Shown here: piece after piece, positions 3,727 through 9,108 of the stretch
Layout of the letters: each line of letters starts with the position of its first letter
How positions within the stretch are numbered: the first letter of the stretch is position 1
Source of the DNA: a virus
Length of the DNA stretch: 45,879 bases
Reading direction: 5' to 3' (one strand)
Virus genome (UHGV): UHGV-0132371
Program-made: the position numbers and the translations under genes
The notes under the pieces: generated by a model
Database searches by the model: none
Told to the model about the DNA's origin: nothing
The model's input: only the letters and a program-made list of their open reading frames with translations

Positions 3727-4262
3727 GCGGCGCATTGGCGCTGCTCCATCAACTCGTTAAAGCGATTGATGAACATGCCGTATGACTGGCCAGGACGAAC
3801 TGGGTTGATAATGAATAAATCCGTTGGGACAACTCCCTCGAGGCATGGCCAAATGGAACCTTCGTCAATCTCAAAATCGCGGCGTTCGCTGGCGAGCATC
3901 ACCAGGTCGGCATATTTCACGGTTGGGTGTTGCTCAGTTGGTAGACCGAACTTCTGCCGAATGGCTGCGTCCACACGAGCTTCGATTGCCTGGTAATCCG
4001 GAAGCAGGCGCTTAAGTGGGGAGGGGATGTCCTGCAGGTAGGCTTCAGCAGCATCATGAAGCAGTGCTTCTAATGCAAACTCCTGCGGAACGAGGTGGCT
4101 GGTTAAAACGCTATGCTGGCCGACACTGTAAAACTCAGGAAGATGCCCTGCAAAGCGGCAGATATGAGACAACGCGGTAGCAATATCCTCGATCACGATA
4201 TCGTCCTGTTGGATATCGAGGTAATTAAAATGTTTGCCGGATAATGTCTGAATGTAGCTCAT
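3723..4262 (-). CDS. HD-domain phosphohydrolase (putative)
   Basis: LLHDAAEAY motif with upstream histidines; start chosen at MSYIQ, which has GGAG upstream (track ORF extends to 4289). Confidence 0.55.
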   Translation of the reverse strand: MSYIQTLSGKHFNYLDIQQDDIVIEDIATALSHICRFAGHLPEFYSVGQHSVLTSHLVPQEFALEALLHDAAEAYLQDIPSPLKRLLPDYQAIEARVDAAIRQKFGLPTEQHPTVKYADLVMLASERRDFEIDEGSIWPCLEGVVPTDLFIINPVRPGQSYGMFINRFNELMEQRQCAA

Positions 4263-4370
4263 GGTTTTCTCCATATTGGCGCGCTGCACCGCGCCATTAA
4301 ATTAATGAATTGCTGAATTTAGCGTGCAGCAACCCAACCCATGCTTATGGGGGTAATTGTTGCCTGGTGT

Positions 4371-5288
4371 TTATCGCTTGGCTTCGCCGCCGAGAGAGGT
4401 TGTTAATCCGTTAATGAGAGAGATAAGCTCGCCGGTCATCAGAACAAAGTCAGCGTCGAACCGCTGAGCCGCATCCTCACGGTCGATATCGTCGTTTTGT
4501 TCTGTAATCTCATTAGAGAACTTAAGGCGTTTGATGCTGCCGTCATCGCAAAGAACGAACTGAATGCGCTGTTGCCAGTCGATAGACAGCTTTGTAACTA
4601 CTTTGCCAGCTTCCAGATGCACATGAATTTCGTCACTGACCAGAGTCTGTTTTTTAAAGCGTCCAATACCGCCATCTTCAAGAATAGCTTTCAGTTCGGC
4701 TTCATCACCCAGGCCAAAGCCAGCAGGCGCACTACCGGAACGAACCCATTCGGTCATAGTTAGTTCGATCGGCGTTTCCATAGTCAGCGGTACCACCGGG
4801 AGAGAACCGAGAGTTTTACGAAGCAGGGCCAGTGAGTCTTCGGCACGTTTAGCGCTGGCTGCATCAACCATGATCAGACCGTCGGTGACGTTGATCCACA
4901 AACTAACAGTCGAGTTTTTGGAGAACGCCCGAGGAAGCAGGGAGTGCAACACTTCATCACGCAGCGAATCTTTCTCAGTTTTTTTGAGGCGACGCCCCTG
5001 ATCGGATTCCAGACGCGACACACGCTTGCGCAGTTCTTCAGCAATGACAGGAGATGGCAGTATTTTTTCTTCCCGGCGAATAACCAACAACACTTGATTA
5101 TTGACAGTGTGATGCAAGCGATCTGACAGCTGACCAAGTGGTGATACCCAACCGGTTTTTGCCATATCCTGGCTACCGCATGGAGTGAAGCGAAATAGTT
5201 CAAGCTGCTGTTCCAGCTCTTCCTGGTTGATGGTGAAATCGCGACTAATGCGATACACCAACATATTTTTGAAAAACGGATTGTTCAT
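4371..5288 (-). CDS. rdgC: Recombination-associated protein RdgC homolog
   Basis: 305 aa, alignable by eye along its whole length with E. coli RdgC ([11 protein letters not shown]..., [37 protein letters not shown]). Confidence 0.85.
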
Positions 5289-5340
5289 TCTCGGTTCCTC
5301 AACGCCTCTGCACCGGCGCTAAAAAGTTAGTTTCTCCATA

Positions 5341-5452
5341 CACAACAGAGAAGGGCACCTGCATTGGTCGGCGGCTTGCAGAGACCGCTTTCTTTTTGCC
5401 CGGGTGGATTGGGTTATGAGCCCGTCGCCCGGTGATGCCCTTTTCTGTTGTG
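5341..5452 (-). other. Long imperfect hairpin (16 of 18 bp stem, about 76 nt enclosed) in the leader between the first early-left gene and rdgC
   Basis: CACAACAGAGAAGGGCAC at 5341-5358 pairs with ATGCCCTTTTCTGTTGTG at 5435-5452; GC-rich interior with further self-complementarity. Confidence 0.4.
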
Positions 5453-5600
5453 CCCTGAAAAAGGCTGGCGGTTACCGGAAATACACGGGAAAACACCGGG
5501 CCGCCAGAACAGGGAGTTACTTGTTATTGCTTTAGCCTGCTTTTAACCACATCAGGCGCGGTGGTATCTTGGTGTTCTCACACAACCAAGAGGGATGTTT

Positions 5601-5798
5601 ATGGGCGCTTTTGATAACCAGGAAATTACGTTACCCGCATGCCCTAAGTGCGGCACTAAGACGAAGAAGAAAATCGCTTGGCTCAAGTCGAACAAAAGTT
5701 TCACTTGTCGATGTGGAGCTACTATCAATGTCAACAGCAGCCAGCTTACTTCCGAAATCAGGATGGTTGAGGACAAGCTGAAGAAGCTCTTTAAATAG
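5601..5798 (+). CDS. Small zinc-ribbon protein (CPKCG...CRCG), antisense to the early-left gene
   Basis: AGAGGGA RBS, possible TGnTATCTT promoter upstream, hairpin plus T-run downstream; but it overlaps the minus-strand ORF 5631..5996, so it may be a shadow frame. Confidence 0.35.
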   Translation: MGAFDNQEITLPACPKCGTKTKKKIAWLKSNKSFTCRCGATINVNSSQLTSEIRMVEDKLKKLFK

Positions 5799-5996
5799 TT
5801 TTTTATCGACTGATATTATTTCGTTATCAGAGGTTGGTTTTTCAGCCTCTGATTTTTTAGTCAGGATCATTTTTTCTACACATGTGACTACGCATTCCGA
5901 ACAGATGGCAGGTTCGTCCTTACCACCTTTTGCGACGATCTTTATCGCTCCCAGTTCGGTTGCTCCGCAAAATGAGCATGTGAATAAATGATTCAT
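5631..5996 (-). CDS. ClpX-type zinc-finger protein, first gene of the leftward early operon
   Basis: N-terminus LFTCSFCG...(x19)...ICSECV..C closely matches the ClpX N-terminal zinc-binding domain; GAGG RBS before the ATG at 5996. Confidence 0.5.
   Translation of the reverse strand: MNHLFTCSFCGATELGAIKIVAKGGKDEPAICSECVVTCVEKMILTKKSEAEKPTSDNEIISVDKKLFKELLQLVLNHPDFGSKLAAVDIDSSSTSTSETFVRLEPSDFLLRLSAALRACG
5826..5859 (+). terminator. Possible hairpin terminator after the plus-strand small ORF
   Basis: ATCAGAGG...CCTCTGAT inverted repeat followed by TTTTTT; large loop, so weak. Confidence 0.3.
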
Positions 5997-6014
5997 GTAA
6001 ACCTCTACCCCCAA

Positions 6015-6252
6015 CCTAAGTTTTCTGTCAGCGAATCATCCGGTTATTCATATGCCACCGGCGGCTACTTCGTGGGCGTCCTGCCTGTTCGCTGTTGATG
6101 AATACATAATTAACCAATGGCTAATATTTGTAAACAACCAATAGTTAATTTTTGAGTGTTTAGGAATTAACTCAATGATTTTTAATAAAATATATTTTGT
6201 TGTTAAGTGATGACGTGCTTAAAAAAAACACCATCTACAAAAGAGGAGTGTT
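6015..6252. promoter_or_regulatory. AT-rich intergenic region; candidate early-left promoter/operator and promoter of the plus-strand small gene
   Basis: Very AT-rich with repeated GTTAAT/ATTAAC half-site-like motifs also present in the cI-cro intergenic region. Confidence 0.3.
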
Positions 6253-6459
6253 ATGGAACGTGATGATCTGGAAGAAGACCGCGCAGCGTTCATTGCTGGC
6301 GAGATAGGCGGAGTGGTGATTCAGTTAATCATCGAAGGGATCGAAATCAACCGTGATAATATCGTTGAGTATCTGGAGGCAAAGCGTCGCGCGGTTGGTA
6401 ACGTGATCCACAAAGGCTTGCTGAGAGATGCTGCGGAATTTGTGAGGAAAGGGCAATAA
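6253..6459 (+). CDS. Small acidic hypothetical protein (68 aa), moron-like
   Basis: Strong AAGAGGAG RBS; AT-rich upstream region; opposite orientation to neighbours. Confidence 0.5.
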   Translation: MERDDLEEDRAAFIAGEIGGVVIQLIIEGIEINRDNIVEYLEAKRRAVGNVIHKGLLRDAAEFVRKGQ

Positions 6460-6481
6460 AAACCCGACGCGGTGGTCGGGT
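6456..6481 (-). terminator. Rho-independent terminator ending the cI-cargo operon
   Basis: CCCGAC-CACCGC-GTCGGG hairpin followed by a U-tract on the minus strand, immediately after the stop at 6481. Confidence 0.55.
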
Positions 6482-6672
6482 TAGAACAGGAGTTTAACTG
6501 CGGCTAGGGTCAGACCTGTGATTGTAAAGATCGCACCAACTATCGACCAAGTCTGAATCCTGAGTTCCTTTTGTAGGTCTTCTCGTGTCGCGTAATTAGA
6601 CTTGATAACAGCAACATCAGTCTTAATGGACGCGATATCTACCTCAAGCTGCCTAACTCTTGCTTCAAGCAT
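6481..6672 (-). CDS. Small coiled-coil protein with C-terminal transmembrane helix (XhlA-like architecture)
   Basis: Start chosen at MLEARV, which has GGAGGTGA 6 nt upstream (track ORF extends to 6795 and would overlap the upstream gene); hydrophobic C-terminus [22 protein letters not shown]. Confidence 0.5.
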
Positions 6673-6739
6673 ATCATCACCTCCGCCATCTCCGCCTCGT
6701 CGTGTTATTGCAGGTAGTTCACTATTAAATGGTACTACA

Positions 6740-7087
6740 TTATTTTGCGGCGTCGGCATTTTTTTCATCTTCCGTTTTTGCCGGGAATTTTTCATTTACC
6801 CAGTTAAGAACTGAAAACGCATTTATATGTGTTTCATTTCCACAATTGTTGCATATTAGTGAAAAGTAATACTGGTTAGCAGTATCGGAATAAATGCTTT
6901 TTTCAGTAAAAACATTTACATAACTACCAAGCGCCATAGTGCATGGCATTCCAACACTCGCACTGACTTGAGGCACCGTTAACCTGTCATGCCCACATAG
7001 CGTGCATTTTAGATATATATTCTTTTCTGAGAAGTAAGAGACTAACATGTCCATGTTGATCCTTTCGAACCCCTGTTCACTCGCCAT
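6740..7087 (-). CDS. Zinc-ribbon protein (CTLCG...CNNCG), gene directly downstream of cI
   Basis: 115 aa, GAGGA RBS, starts 16 nt after the cI stop, so probably co-transcribed with the repressor. Confidence 0.55.
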
Positions 7088-7103
7088 TCACATATCCTCA
7101 GAG

Positions 7104-7838
7104 TTAAAGTCGATTATATTTAATTGACTCATGAATCAATGCCTTACCCATGACATAAAGCTGATCCTGATTCGCCTCATTGATGTACCACTTTTCATAT
7201 GCAGAGTTATCAGACAGAACAGCGAGCTTGTCACCTTGCATCTGTAGGCGCTTAACATGAAACGTCTTACCGTATACGAAAGAGTAAACACCGTCGGTCT
7301 GGAAGTGACGAACTGAGATGTCGACGAATAGTCGATCACCAGAAACGAGGGTTGGTGACATACTGTCGCCGTTAACAGTCATGACCTTCACATCTTCTGG
7401 ATCGCGATTTCCAAAAAGCACTCGGGCATGTTCAGTCGTGAACTCAATGGCGTACAAGACTTCAACATAGTCAGAAAGCATGTAGGTGCCAGGTCCAGCA
7501 CTGACAGATAAATCCAGAACTTCAACGCGATAAACATCCTGCTCTGGCTTATTAACCATGCGTTTCACTTCCCCTGTATCTGTTGGCTCACCAACACCGT
7601 ATTCCAGCCATTCGGCACGTACACCAAGTACTTTACTGAGAGCCACTATTTTCTGACTGTCCGGTATGGCCTGGGCGTTGAACCACTTCCAAACTCCAGG
7701 TGTAGTGATCTCCACCCCGGCTTTATTAAGCAGGTCTGCAAGGTTTTTGTTTCGTCCCCGACCAGTTAATCCAGCAAGTTGACAAACTTGCAGCAGCCTA
7801 GTCGTGAAACCTTCTTTCGTTTCGTCTCTCTTAACCAT
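7104..7838 (-). CDS. cI: CI-like prophage repressor (N-terminal HTH, C-terminal S24 LexA-type peptidase domain)
   Basis: VNGDSMSPTL serine motif and downstream HVKRL lysine; divergent from a Cro-like gene. Confidence 0.85.
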   Translation of the reverse strand: MVKRDETKEGFTTRLLQVCQLAGLTGRGRNKNLADLLNKAGVEITTPGVWKWFNAQAIPDSQKIVALSKVLGVRAEWLEYGVGEPTDTGEVKRMVNKPEQDVYRVEVLDLSVSAGPGTYMLSDYVEVLYAIEFTTEHARVLFGNRDPEDVKVMTVNGDSMSPTLVSGDRLFVDISVRHFQTDGVYSFVYGKTFHVKRLQMQGDKLAVLSDNSAYEKWYINEANQDQLYVMGKALIHESIKYNRL

Positions 7839-7921
7839 TAGTTAAATATCCGGGAACTTGACTTTGCTGTCAGTTAATATTTATTATTAACTTGTGGTTA
7901 ATTTTGTAATCAGGAGAGTCA
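7839..7921. promoter_or_regulatory. Divergent immunity promoter/operator region (PRM/PR-like)
   Basis: 83 bp AT-rich spacer between divergent cI and cro-like genes containing GTTAATATTTATTATTAAC and TTAACTTGTGGTTAAT dyads. Confidence 0.5.
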
Positions 7922-8170
7922 ATGAACGCTGTAGAAATTGCAGTAGAAGCTGTCGGTGGACAAACAGCAGCCGCAAAAATTTGTGGTTTATCCCCGGTAG
8001 CTGTTCACCGCTGGGTTAAAAACGCCTGTCTTCCTCGTACCGAATACACAAAAAAAACGGAATACGCGGAGTTACTTGCTTCTAAATCAGCAGGTCAGTT
8101 CACTGCTGACTGGTTGCTGGAAAATGCTAATCCTGATCGTCCAGGAAAGGTTAACGATCCATCAGCTTAA
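7922..8170 (+). CDS. cro: Cro-like / YdaS-type HTH regulator
   Basis: 82 aa, AGGAGAG RBS, first gene of the rightward operon; HTH signature GQTAAAKICGLSPVAVHRW. Confidence 0.7.
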   Translation: MNAVEIAVEAVGGQTAAAKICGLSPVAVHRWVKNACLPRTEYTKKTEYAELLASKSAGQFTADWLLENANPDRPGKVNDPSA

Positions 8171-8198
8171 ACGTAACCACAGAAATTAGGGGATAACC

Positions 8199-8762
8199 GT
8201 GGATAAACAACACTGGAAAGTAGAGCGCCAACCTGCATGGCTGGTGGCTGCAATCAAAAGAACTATTGCCGAAATGCCAGGCGGTTATACAGAAGCTGCT
8301 GAATGGCTTGGCCTGTATCGCGCTGGAAAACTCTCAACGGATGCGCTCTACAACAGACTGCGTAACGAAGGAGATCAAATTTTCCCGCTTGAGTGGGCGA
8401 TGGTGCTTCAGGATGCAAGTGGTACTAAGTATGTCACCGATGCGATAGCCCGCCGTAGTGGTGGCGTCTTCGTTCCGCTGGTGGAGGTTGATGATCTTGA
8501 TAACGGCGATATCAACCAGCGCCTGATGGAGTCCATCGAATGGATTGGTAAACACTCGCAGTACCTGCGTAAGGCAACCGCTGACGGGGTTATTGATCCG
8601 GCAGAACGTGAGCAGATTGAAGAGAACAGCTATCAGGTGATGGCTAAGTGGCAGGAACATTTGACGCTGCTTTTCCGTGTGTTTTGTGCGCCGGAAAAAG
8701 GTGACGCCCGCGAGTGTGCAGCTCCGGGCGTCGTGGCAGACAAATCTTGTATGGAGAAGTAA
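8199..8762 (+). CDS. CII-like / YdaT-YmfL-like putative regulatory protein
   Basis: 187 aa directly after the cro-like gene; GTG start with AGGGGA RBS. Family from memory, uncertain. Confidence 0.45.
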   Translation: MDKQHWKVERQPAWLVAAIKRTIAEMPGGYTEAAEWLGLYRAGKLSTDALYNRLRNEGDQIFPLEWAMVLQDASGTKYVTDAIARRSGGVFVPLVEVDDLDNGDINQRLMESIEWIGKHSQYLRKATADGVIDPAEREQIEENSYQVMAKWQEHLTLLFRVFCAPEKGDARECAAPGVVADKSCMEK

Positions 8763-8934
8763 TCCGCATGACCAGTTTAACGGCTTTTAACCGTTTACCG
8801 CAACTCAGGATGATCCCGGTACCGGGCGCTCCGTTGTTTCGGTATGAACGCAGAATAGCAAACCGCTGGGTGCCATGTAACCACAGTCGGGCGGTCGCAA
8901 TTGTGGGGGTTTACTACAGGAAGGCGAAACGCTT

Positions 8935-9108
8935 ATGCGCGAAGTTAACCGAAGGTTCAAAGACCACAGAGGGATCCCCGTTCGGGTTATCCGGTGGGAG
9001 CCTGAAACGCGGCGTGTTATCTACCTGCGAGCAGGGTATGAGCACGAATGCTTCAGCCCACTTGAGCATTTCAGGCAAAAGTTCAGGGAGATAGAGGATG
9101 AGAGCTAA
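8935..9108 (+). CDS. Small hypothetical protein (57 aa)
   Basis: AGGAAGG RBS before the ATG; the alternative frame starting at 8768 is also open but ends in low-complexity sequence. Confidence 0.3.
   Translation: MREVNRRFKDHRGIPVRVIRWEPETRRVIYLRAGYEHECFSPLEHFRQKFREIEDES

Follow-up and report, generated by a model that had tools for sequence, protein, structure and literature searches.

From comparison of sequences, each strand of a 168-bp stretch of an Escherichia coli prophage appears to encode part of a different, real protein. The window analyzed here is the whole 45,879-nt virus genome UHGV-0132371, whose positions are used throughout, and ORFs were present on both of its strands where they had been predicted to lie. 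The reading considered probable is that the locus is a convergent dual-coding cassette. Its plus strand would carry an old, widespread small zinc-ribbon gene with its own promoter/5' UTR and terminator, opposing the early-left operon. Its minus strand would be read antisense to this gene and to the terminator of this gene, yielding a C-terminal module of ~68 residues that is fused to a ClpX-type finger in this prophage and is found elsewhere fused to other domains or nearly alone. If both proteins are real, the locus would be one of the rare bacterial cases of an antisense gene overlap conserved in evolution. The locus was found in 42 of 5426 complete E. coli genomes, including that of the probiotic strain Nissle 1917.

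The minus-strand gene (5631-5996) encodes a 121-aa protein consisting of a ClpX-type zinc finger, a linker and the C-terminal module; an ORF identical to it is called by PGAP. The plus-strand gene (5601-5798) encodes a 65-aa basic zinc-ribbon protein with a CPKCG...CRCG motif and a C-terminal helix. The two genes are convergent, their promoters face each other, and they share a putative dual-coding overlap of 168 nt (5631-5798, both strands). The codon register, determined from the coordinates, is exactly antisense, with position 2 opposite position 2 and plus position 3 opposite minus position 1, and the two transcripts would be complementary over ~200 nt, the whole plus gene included. On the minus strand the overlap takes up the last 56 codons of the ORF, and the zinc finger itself lies outside it. 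The original prediction of a free-standing ClpX-type finger was not sustained, as the finger is fused here to the ~68-residue module, and it is the module, not the finger, that overlaps the plus gene.

Relatives of the locus were gathered by two independent routes, one starting from the minus protein and the other from the plus protein (pattern scan and tblastn), which together gave 21 distinct sequences from several genera of Enterobacterales. One further locus carried a 1-nt deletion that breaks both frames. No additional lineages were obtained from metagenome or extra viral scans; the search with P0014 returned nothing and that with P0013 one unrelated locus. A tblastn search of the phage collection returned a single near-identical record for either protein. 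Comparison of relatives had been proposed to distinguish a conserved frame from one disrupted by stops, and across the 21 distinct sequences neither frame was broken by stops.

The plus ORF is listed as 5595-5798, and the start conserved in relatives is its second ATG, at 5601. The sequence AAGAGGG, a ribosome-binding (SD) site, occupies 5588-5594, 6 nt before this ATG, and the stop codon is TAG at 5796-5798. The ORF was intact in 21 of 21 distinct sequences, each with 65 codons, an identical ATG and stop, and an SD-like motif, at plus-protein identities of ~60 to 100%. Its four cysteines were near-invariant in these sequences, the sole exception being a Cys-to-Tyr change in locus L037. Conservation continued past the minus stop, through ten plus codons, the SD and an upstream block of ~50 nt; codons 2-10 of the plus gene, which lie outside the overlap, varied in a coding-like pattern, with parsimony steps per site of 0.67 (position 1), 0.44 (position 2) and 2.0 (position 3). 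When 1.84 billion representative proteins were scanned in full with HMMER, 293 homologues were returned at E ≤ 1e-3, nearly all of them 62-76 aa long and matched end to end. In the homologue loci that were fetched these were stand-alone genes, often single genes of phage early regions oriented toward the genes beside them. The AF2 model of the plus protein is a zinc ribbon with a C-terminal helix (pLDDT 81), for which a Foldseek search against the PDB returned only generic zinc ribbons, e.g. Kti11 and ribosomal proteins. No curated family in Pfam, PHROGs, NCBIfam or PADLOC matched the plus protein at threshold, PHROGs being without a family for it. In RefSeq (PGAP) the plus gene is unannotated in all 42 E. 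coli genomes with the locus, in which only the minus ORF is annotated, and a single GenBank record annotates the plus ORF, as a hypothetical protein. On comparative grounds, the plus ORF is certainly a real gene that RefSeq has missed. Its product, a basic zinc ribbon, is possibly a nucleic acid-binding protein.

The ribosome-binding site (5588-5594), candidate promoter (5562-5570), downstream hairpin (5826-5859) and CPKCG...CRCG motif originally attributed to the plus ORF were all recovered. The candidate promoter is an extended -10 motif, TGG-TATCTT, inside a near-invariant block (5540-5594, plus strand) that is interpreted as a portable promoter/5' UTR element. An inverted repeat within it (CTTGGT/ACCAAG, 5568-5590) overlaps the SD of the plus gene. 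The block is better conserved than the plus coding sequence and remains near-invariant across lineages in which the coding sequence has diverged. In other E. coli prophages the same block was found at the same site, the interval between rdgC and the repressor, without the zinc-ribbon gene and with other cargo behind it, either a 77-aa helical protein or a ~105-aa membrane protein. Because it recurs at one site before different genes, the block would mark a slot for cargo genes whose transcription opposes that of the early-left operon. Beyond the plus gene, a terminator scan identified an intrinsic terminator (5826-5859, plus strand) consisting of a 12-pair hairpin followed by TTTTT. A hairpin lies ~30 nt past the plus stop in every lineage; it forms a canonical terminator, with compensatory changes, in three of them (the window, L004 and L014) and elsewhere is found without a clear U run. 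Read on the minus strand the hairpin is not followed by a U run, and the predicted terminator of the plus gene is one-directional. The linker of the minus protein, KKSEAEKPTSD, is encoded by the strand complementary to this terminator.

The minus ORF is listed as 5631-6014 from a TTG; its likely start is the ATG at 5996, which has a GAGG SD and gives a protein of 121 aa. In E. coli Nissle 1917 the identical 121-aa ORF is annotated by PGAP as WP_016240143.1, "ClpX C4-type zinc finger protein", and phrog_20296 matches the protein over its full length (2.5e-68). The N-terminus had been described as closely matching the ClpX zinc-binding domain, and profile searches gave a borderline match: residues 4-42 (CSFCG...CSEC; 5871-5987, minus strand) match Pfam zf-C4_ClpX (PF06689) at E 7.6e-6 with 26.2 bits, just below the gathering score of 27. 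The CxxC...CxxC arrangement of the ClpX cysteines is matched in the alignment by C7, C10, C32 and C35. Six PDB sequence matches were obtained, weak (E 0.17-0.8) and all to ClpX N-domains, and the relatives P0002, P0010 and P0011 carry a precomputed PF06689 match. Related prophages encode the same finger as a 66-73 aa protein in which the module is absent and the tail is short and unrelated; the plus-strand ORF beside one such finger-only relative (L003) is unrelated to the zinc ribbon.

The placement of the minus gene at the head of the early-left operon, also part of the original prediction, agrees with a promoter-like site and with synteny. In the leftward direction the terminator of the repressor operon (6482-6461, minus strand) is followed by the promoter-like site TTTACA-17-AATTAT (6106-6134, minus strand), a candidate early-left promoter, then by a conserved leader (6031-6096, minus strand) directly downstream of that site, and then by the finger gene, which is the first gene after the promoter-like site. 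In Nissle and in Kluyvera, Serratia and Ewingella prophages the homologous gene likewise comes directly after a CI/LexA-type repressor gene and precedes rdgC or yfdP-type early genes. No tRNA was found between rdgC and the cassette in the window. The leader lies outside the overlap and is predicted to be a structured RNA of the leftward transcript, with a consensus fold of 16 pairs, 4 of them with compensatory changes; the single-sequence fold was no better than those of shuffles. Its location immediately downstream of the candidate early promoter fits the position of an HK022-type put RNA. In sequence the leader showed no similarity to HK022 putL or putR, blastn against the HK022 nun-cI region having given chance matches only, and a search of Rfam at permissive thresholds over 4000-9000 gave only a chance snoRNA match.

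The C-terminal module of the minus protein (residues 54-121, PTSDNEIISVDKKLFKELLQLV...LLRLSAALRACG; 5634-5837, minus strand) is common to proteins with unrelated N-termini, being fused in frame to at least five of these in relatives. Its N-terminal partners include the ClpX-type finger, an AlpA-type HTH, P22_Y8K6, a coiled-coil, and regions of 232, 143 and 139 aa. In one group of relatives (L013/L044-L051) the minus protein is 91-99 aa long, the module being preceded by ~30 residues, and the gene has an SD and an ATG of its own; judged from this gene structure, the module is the body of the gene in that group. The stand-alone module gene occurs in three upstream contexts, one of them a late operon beside lysis and terminase genes. 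Homology between lineages reaches ~14 residues upstream of the overlap, over the motif P-T/S-x-D/E-x-x-I-T/S-I/V-D-K. The module was found in six clusters among 5.8 billion proteins, all from Enterobacterales.

The rival explanation that survives best, although it is considered unlikely, is that only the plus gene is functional here, the minus gene being real in its N-terminal part and its 68-residue tail being a tolerated, functionless read-through. The finger-only relatives of 66-73 aa, which show that the finger works without the module, are in keeping with such a tail, as is the poor AF2 model of the module (the 121-aa protein was modeled at low confidence, pLDDT 52, from a 9-sequence alignment). 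Retention of the frame across at least five independent N-terminal junctions argues the other way, and so does the existence of the module as a stand-alone gene of 91-99 aa.

The minus frame was without a stop in the 54 overlapped codons in 21 of 21 sequences and always ended at the same codon. In every case the plus-strand codon facing this stop is that for Leu11, which was only TTA or CTA, and the fixed place of the stop also speaks against a functionless tail. The other Leu and Ser codons of the plus gene vary freely yet were never TTA, CTA or TCA. Since most of the sequences were found through the plus protein, the openness of the minus frame is no ascertainment effect. When selection on the plus frame only was simulated on the tree, the probability that all 21 sequences keep the minus frame open was ~0.01, and under selection on the minus frame only, the probability of an open plus frame was <0.002. 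Events silent in the plus frame and creating a stop were expected 3.7 times and observed 0 times.

The same register was also examined in distant homologues of the plus protein. In nine of nine stand-alone homologues (GC 0.43-0.71, 34-50% identity), at which no minus gene is called, the antisense frame was open across the gene. These frames run 93-885 nt past the gene stop (93-201 nt in eight of the nine) and contain 95-379 open codons, at a joint probability of ~1e-4 given each protein and local codon usage. This antisense register is intrinsically stop-poor and the outgroups are open too, so the openness of the minus frame is by itself weak evidence and was downgraded; the nine homologues count in favour of a functionless tail. 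The outgroup antisense translations resemble the module because the plus proteins are homologous. On a wider reading, considered unlikely, antisense dual coding would be an ancient property of the whole zinc-ribbon family. If so, the basic zinc ribbon and an acidic, Leu-rich antisense protein would be a conserved two-protein unit, and the products may interact.

Substitution patterns bear on the amino acid sequence of the minus frame as well as on its openness. In the eight minus-frame codons adjoining the overlap, 3.62 steps per site were counted at position 3 versus 1.0 and 1.38 at the other positions, and 20 synonymous events on 5.2 sites (3.83) versus 18 nonsynonymous events on 18.0 sites (1.0), an omega of ~0.26 that is at odds with a functionless tail. 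Within the overlap, each substitution was assigned to a class according to what it changes in either frame, an approach modeled on that of Wei and Zhang (PMC4316641), and the classes were counted by tree parsimony. Changes synonymous in both frames (SS) occurred at 6.46 per site (14 events on ~2.2 sites), those synonymous in plus only (SN) at 1.93 per site (66 events), those synonymous in minus only (NS) at 0.71 per site (27 events) and those nonsynonymous in both (NN) at 0.41 per site (32 events); stop-creating changes in either frame occurred at 0 per site (0 events on 9.7 sites). Selection on the plus frame only predicts SS = SN. The observed SS/SN ratio of 3.3 was reached in 0 of 6000 plus-only simulations run under several mutation rates and transition biases (null mean 1.0, maximum 3.2), and this excess of doubly synonymous change is the second pattern of substitution that a functionless tail leaves unexplained. 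The SS class is small, with 5 of its 14 events at codon 60, and the ratio without codon 60 is still ~2.7; with phylogenetically independent pairs the SS versus SN contrast gave p = 0.02-0.07. Selection on the minus frame only, which predicts SN = NN, was rejected (SN versus NN, p = 8e-14).

For the plus frame, omega was 0.11-0.21 by tree parsimony (NS/SS and NN/SN) and 0.17-0.4 with independent pairs. For the minus frame, tree counts gave 0.30 (SN/SS) and 0.58 (NN/NS), and independent pairs gave 0.4-0.5 (SN/SS); because the NN/NS contrast is unreliable, a working omega of ~0.3-0.5 was adopted. The NS versus NN contrast was dropped because simulation showed it to be biased under the null. Two further observations side with a functionless tail: conservation of the plus protein accounts for most of the amino acid similarity that the module shows from lineage to lineage, and the plus-synonymous rate in the overlap (1.93) is no lower than that in the nine plus-only codons (2.2). 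On balance, purifying selection appears measurable on both frames in the overlap, the plus frame being the more strongly constrained, and by these counts the minus frame is no plain shadow. The original prediction had left the choice between two real genes and one gene with a shadow frame. The first option is now favoured, with the plus ORF certainly a gene and the minus frame always open and under measurable purifying selection.

A second rival, less probable again and in our estimate very unlikely, grants that the minus frame is kept open but only for the passage of ribosomes, which would shield the leftward transcript against polarity caused by Rho or against duplex formation with the plus mRNA, the amino acid sequence being irrelevant. 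The avoidance of stops and the in-frame fusions would be accounted for without a folded domain, and the complementarity of the transcripts over the whole plus gene suits this explanation. It fails, however, to predict the omega of ~0.26 in the flank and the SN/SS of ~0.3-0.5 in the overlap, nor does it predict the conserved I-(T/S)-(I/V)-D-K motif, and the leader, if it is an antiterminator, would already suppress polarity. The remaining explanation, in which the minus ORF is the sole real gene and the zinc ribbon its shadow, could appeal to the annotation of the minus ORF alone by RefSeq/PGAP in all 42 genomes and to the lack of a plus-protein family in PHROGs, and is effectively refuted by the 293 homologues that unrelated genomes carry as called stand-alone genes, by conservation of the ATG, SD, promoter element and ten codons past the minus stop, by the near-invariant cysteines (one change, in L037), by the SN versus NN contrast and the low simulated probability of an open plus frame under minus-only selection, and by the confident AF2 model (pLDDT 81).

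In a convergent dual-coding cassette, the complementarity of the transcripts and the facing promoters suggest that expression of one product probably excludes that of the other. During lysogeny the early-left promoter would be repressed and the plus promoter free, so that the zinc ribbon would be made. Upon induction, strong leftward transcription would overrun the plus promoter and its RNA would pair with the plus mRNA, and the finger-module protein would be made instead. The plus family is broad and the module is restricted to Enterobacterales, from which we infer that the plus gene is the older and the module the younger of the two; this fits origin of the module by overprinting.

Several antisense overlaps have been described in bacteria, among them laoB, a non-trivial overlapping gene on the strand opposite a CadC-like regulator in EHEC (PMC5810103), three antisense genes in E. 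coli O157:H7 (PMC9927249) and two long antisense overlapping pairs in Pseudomonas aeruginosa (PMC8850804). The present locus resembles these in having two coding frames on opposite strands, in pairing an old, widespread gene with a restricted partner, which suggests overprinting, and in having only one partner annotated by pipelines. It differs in that its support is comparative, from 21 diverged sequences, and not expression-based; in that pipelines keep the younger partner and leave the old gene unannotated; and in being a mobile cassette in which the younger frame is a C-terminal module on varied N-terminal domains. Long antisense coding overlaps in bacteria have mostly been claimed from single-strain expression data and are disputed. 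To this debate the locus adds evolutionary evidence, namely frame boundaries and purifying selection across diverged lineages of several genera, and a conserved overlap in a tractable E. coli strain, if real, would provide a clean test case. It also illustrates that annotation pipelines can lose an old, widespread gene to a longer frame on the opposite strand.

On sequence features, the locus combines properties of antisense overlaps with those of convergent-promoter switches and of morons. In phages P2 and 186, face-to-face promoters, one lytic and one opposing, share DNA and interfere with each other, and the overlap is short and untranslated or 5'. The promoters of the present locus are opposed in the same way; unlike in P2 and 186, ~56 codons would be read both ways, and the proposed interference is derived from geometry alone. 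As in prophage morons, the plus gene has its own portable promoter/5' UTR and terminator and is situated between the repressor and the early-left genes, and the site carries different cargo behind the same element in other prophages. Morons are normally intergenic, whereas the plus gene lies inside the coding sequence of its neighbour, on the opposite strand. A portable promoter and cargo slot would thus oppose the early-left operon in a large group of lambdoid prophages, and may point to an unnoticed layer of control over lysogeny and lytic growth at the position held by N in lambda.

No description of this gene pair was found in the literature, nor of a phage ClpX-finger protein acting on ClpXP. 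The minus protein shares with the ClpX N-domain (PF06689) the C4 motif and its spacing (CSFCG...ICSECV..C); unlike ClpX, it is without an AAA+ module and carries an unrelated module at its C-terminus. Binding of ClpX partners by the finger is possible, and the proposal that it engages ClpXP or its adaptors is speculation. The curated families nearest to the plus protein are two of small prophage zinc ribbons, the YnfU proteins (NF038384), known from the Qin prophage of E. coli K-12, and the Lar restriction-alleviation proteins (PF14354). The plus protein is like them in its small size (55-70 aa) and its two CxxC knuckles, but falls below both thresholds, scoring 17 bits where YnfU requires 36 and 17.3 bits where Lar requires 28.6, and is a member of neither family. 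Weak YnfU matches were obtained for 16 of 29 members of the plus-protein family.

Other E. coli prophages also carry the promoter/5'UTR block of the plus-strand zinc-ribbon gene (window 5540-5594): at coordinates 1501-1547 of each of two relative loci (L088 and L089), it occupies the same site and lies upstream of unrelated plus-strand genes. In one case the gene behind the block encodes a 77-aa helical protein (WP_001058060.1), and in the other a membrane protein of ~105 aa, at which the RefSeq annotation places a 184-aa ORF. Because the block recurs there ahead of unrelated plus-strand genes, these sequence comparisons indicate that the site is a cargo slot whose transcription would oppose that of the early-left operon. 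The cassette, that is, the zinc-ribbon gene and the minus-strand ClpX-type finger gene that overlaps it in antisense, is separated from rdgC by a non-coding block of ~150 nt (5329-5480). Phages Flotzy, LLS and phiNP share this block at ~86% identity, and it is almost unchanged in E. coli Nissle 1917 and E. coli MB06232, the latter carrying a different cargo gene. A weak terminator-like site lies inside this block on the plus strand (5423-5437). The phage-borne rdgC itself (recombination-associated protein; 4371-5288, minus strand) is the next early-left gene past the cassette, an order found in several related prophages.

The early-left promoter-like site (6106-6134, minus strand) is followed immediately on its 3' side by a leader of ~65 nt (6031-6096, minus strand), with the core sequence GCGAACAGGCAGGACGCCCACGAAGTAGCCGCCGGTGGCRTATGAATRACCGGATGATTCGC. 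At 85-97% conservation, this leader was found in 1387 of 5426 E. coli genomes (~1390 records) and also in 51 records from phages, among them ST64B, SfV, SfII, SfIV, ZF40, mEp237, mEp460 and SPN3UB; it is conserved regardless of which promoter lies upstream and which gene lies downstream, and it is unannotated in every record that carries it. Its consensus fold comprises two hairpins plus a closing stem, and four of the pairs show compensatory changes. Searches of Rfam returned no matches to the leader, and no similarity to HK022 put was found. The leader is a candidate put-like antitermination RNA. A further ORF of 68 aa (6253-6459, plus strand) lies in the stretch that separates the repressor-operon terminator from the early-left promoter-like site; it has a good SD as well as a promoter-like site (6167-6196), and is not present in the corresponding region of Nissle.

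Across the zinc-ribbon gene, the antisense frame in the same register is open in all nine distant stand-alone homologues (L053-L056, L062 and L090-L093), over stretches of 95-379 codons and often with a Met 27-40 codons upstream of the plus-strand stop; the joint null probability of an open frame in all nine is about 1e-4. For L091, the stop codon of the minus-strand gene upstream immediately precedes the open stretch. Two relative loci, L041 and L059, have in common the loss of one nucleotide near codon 12, which disrupts both frames and may represent decay or sequencing error. In one relative (L037), the third zinc-binding Cys of the plus-strand ORF is replaced by Tyr at codon 36, a substitution that reads as Thr to Ile in the minus frame.
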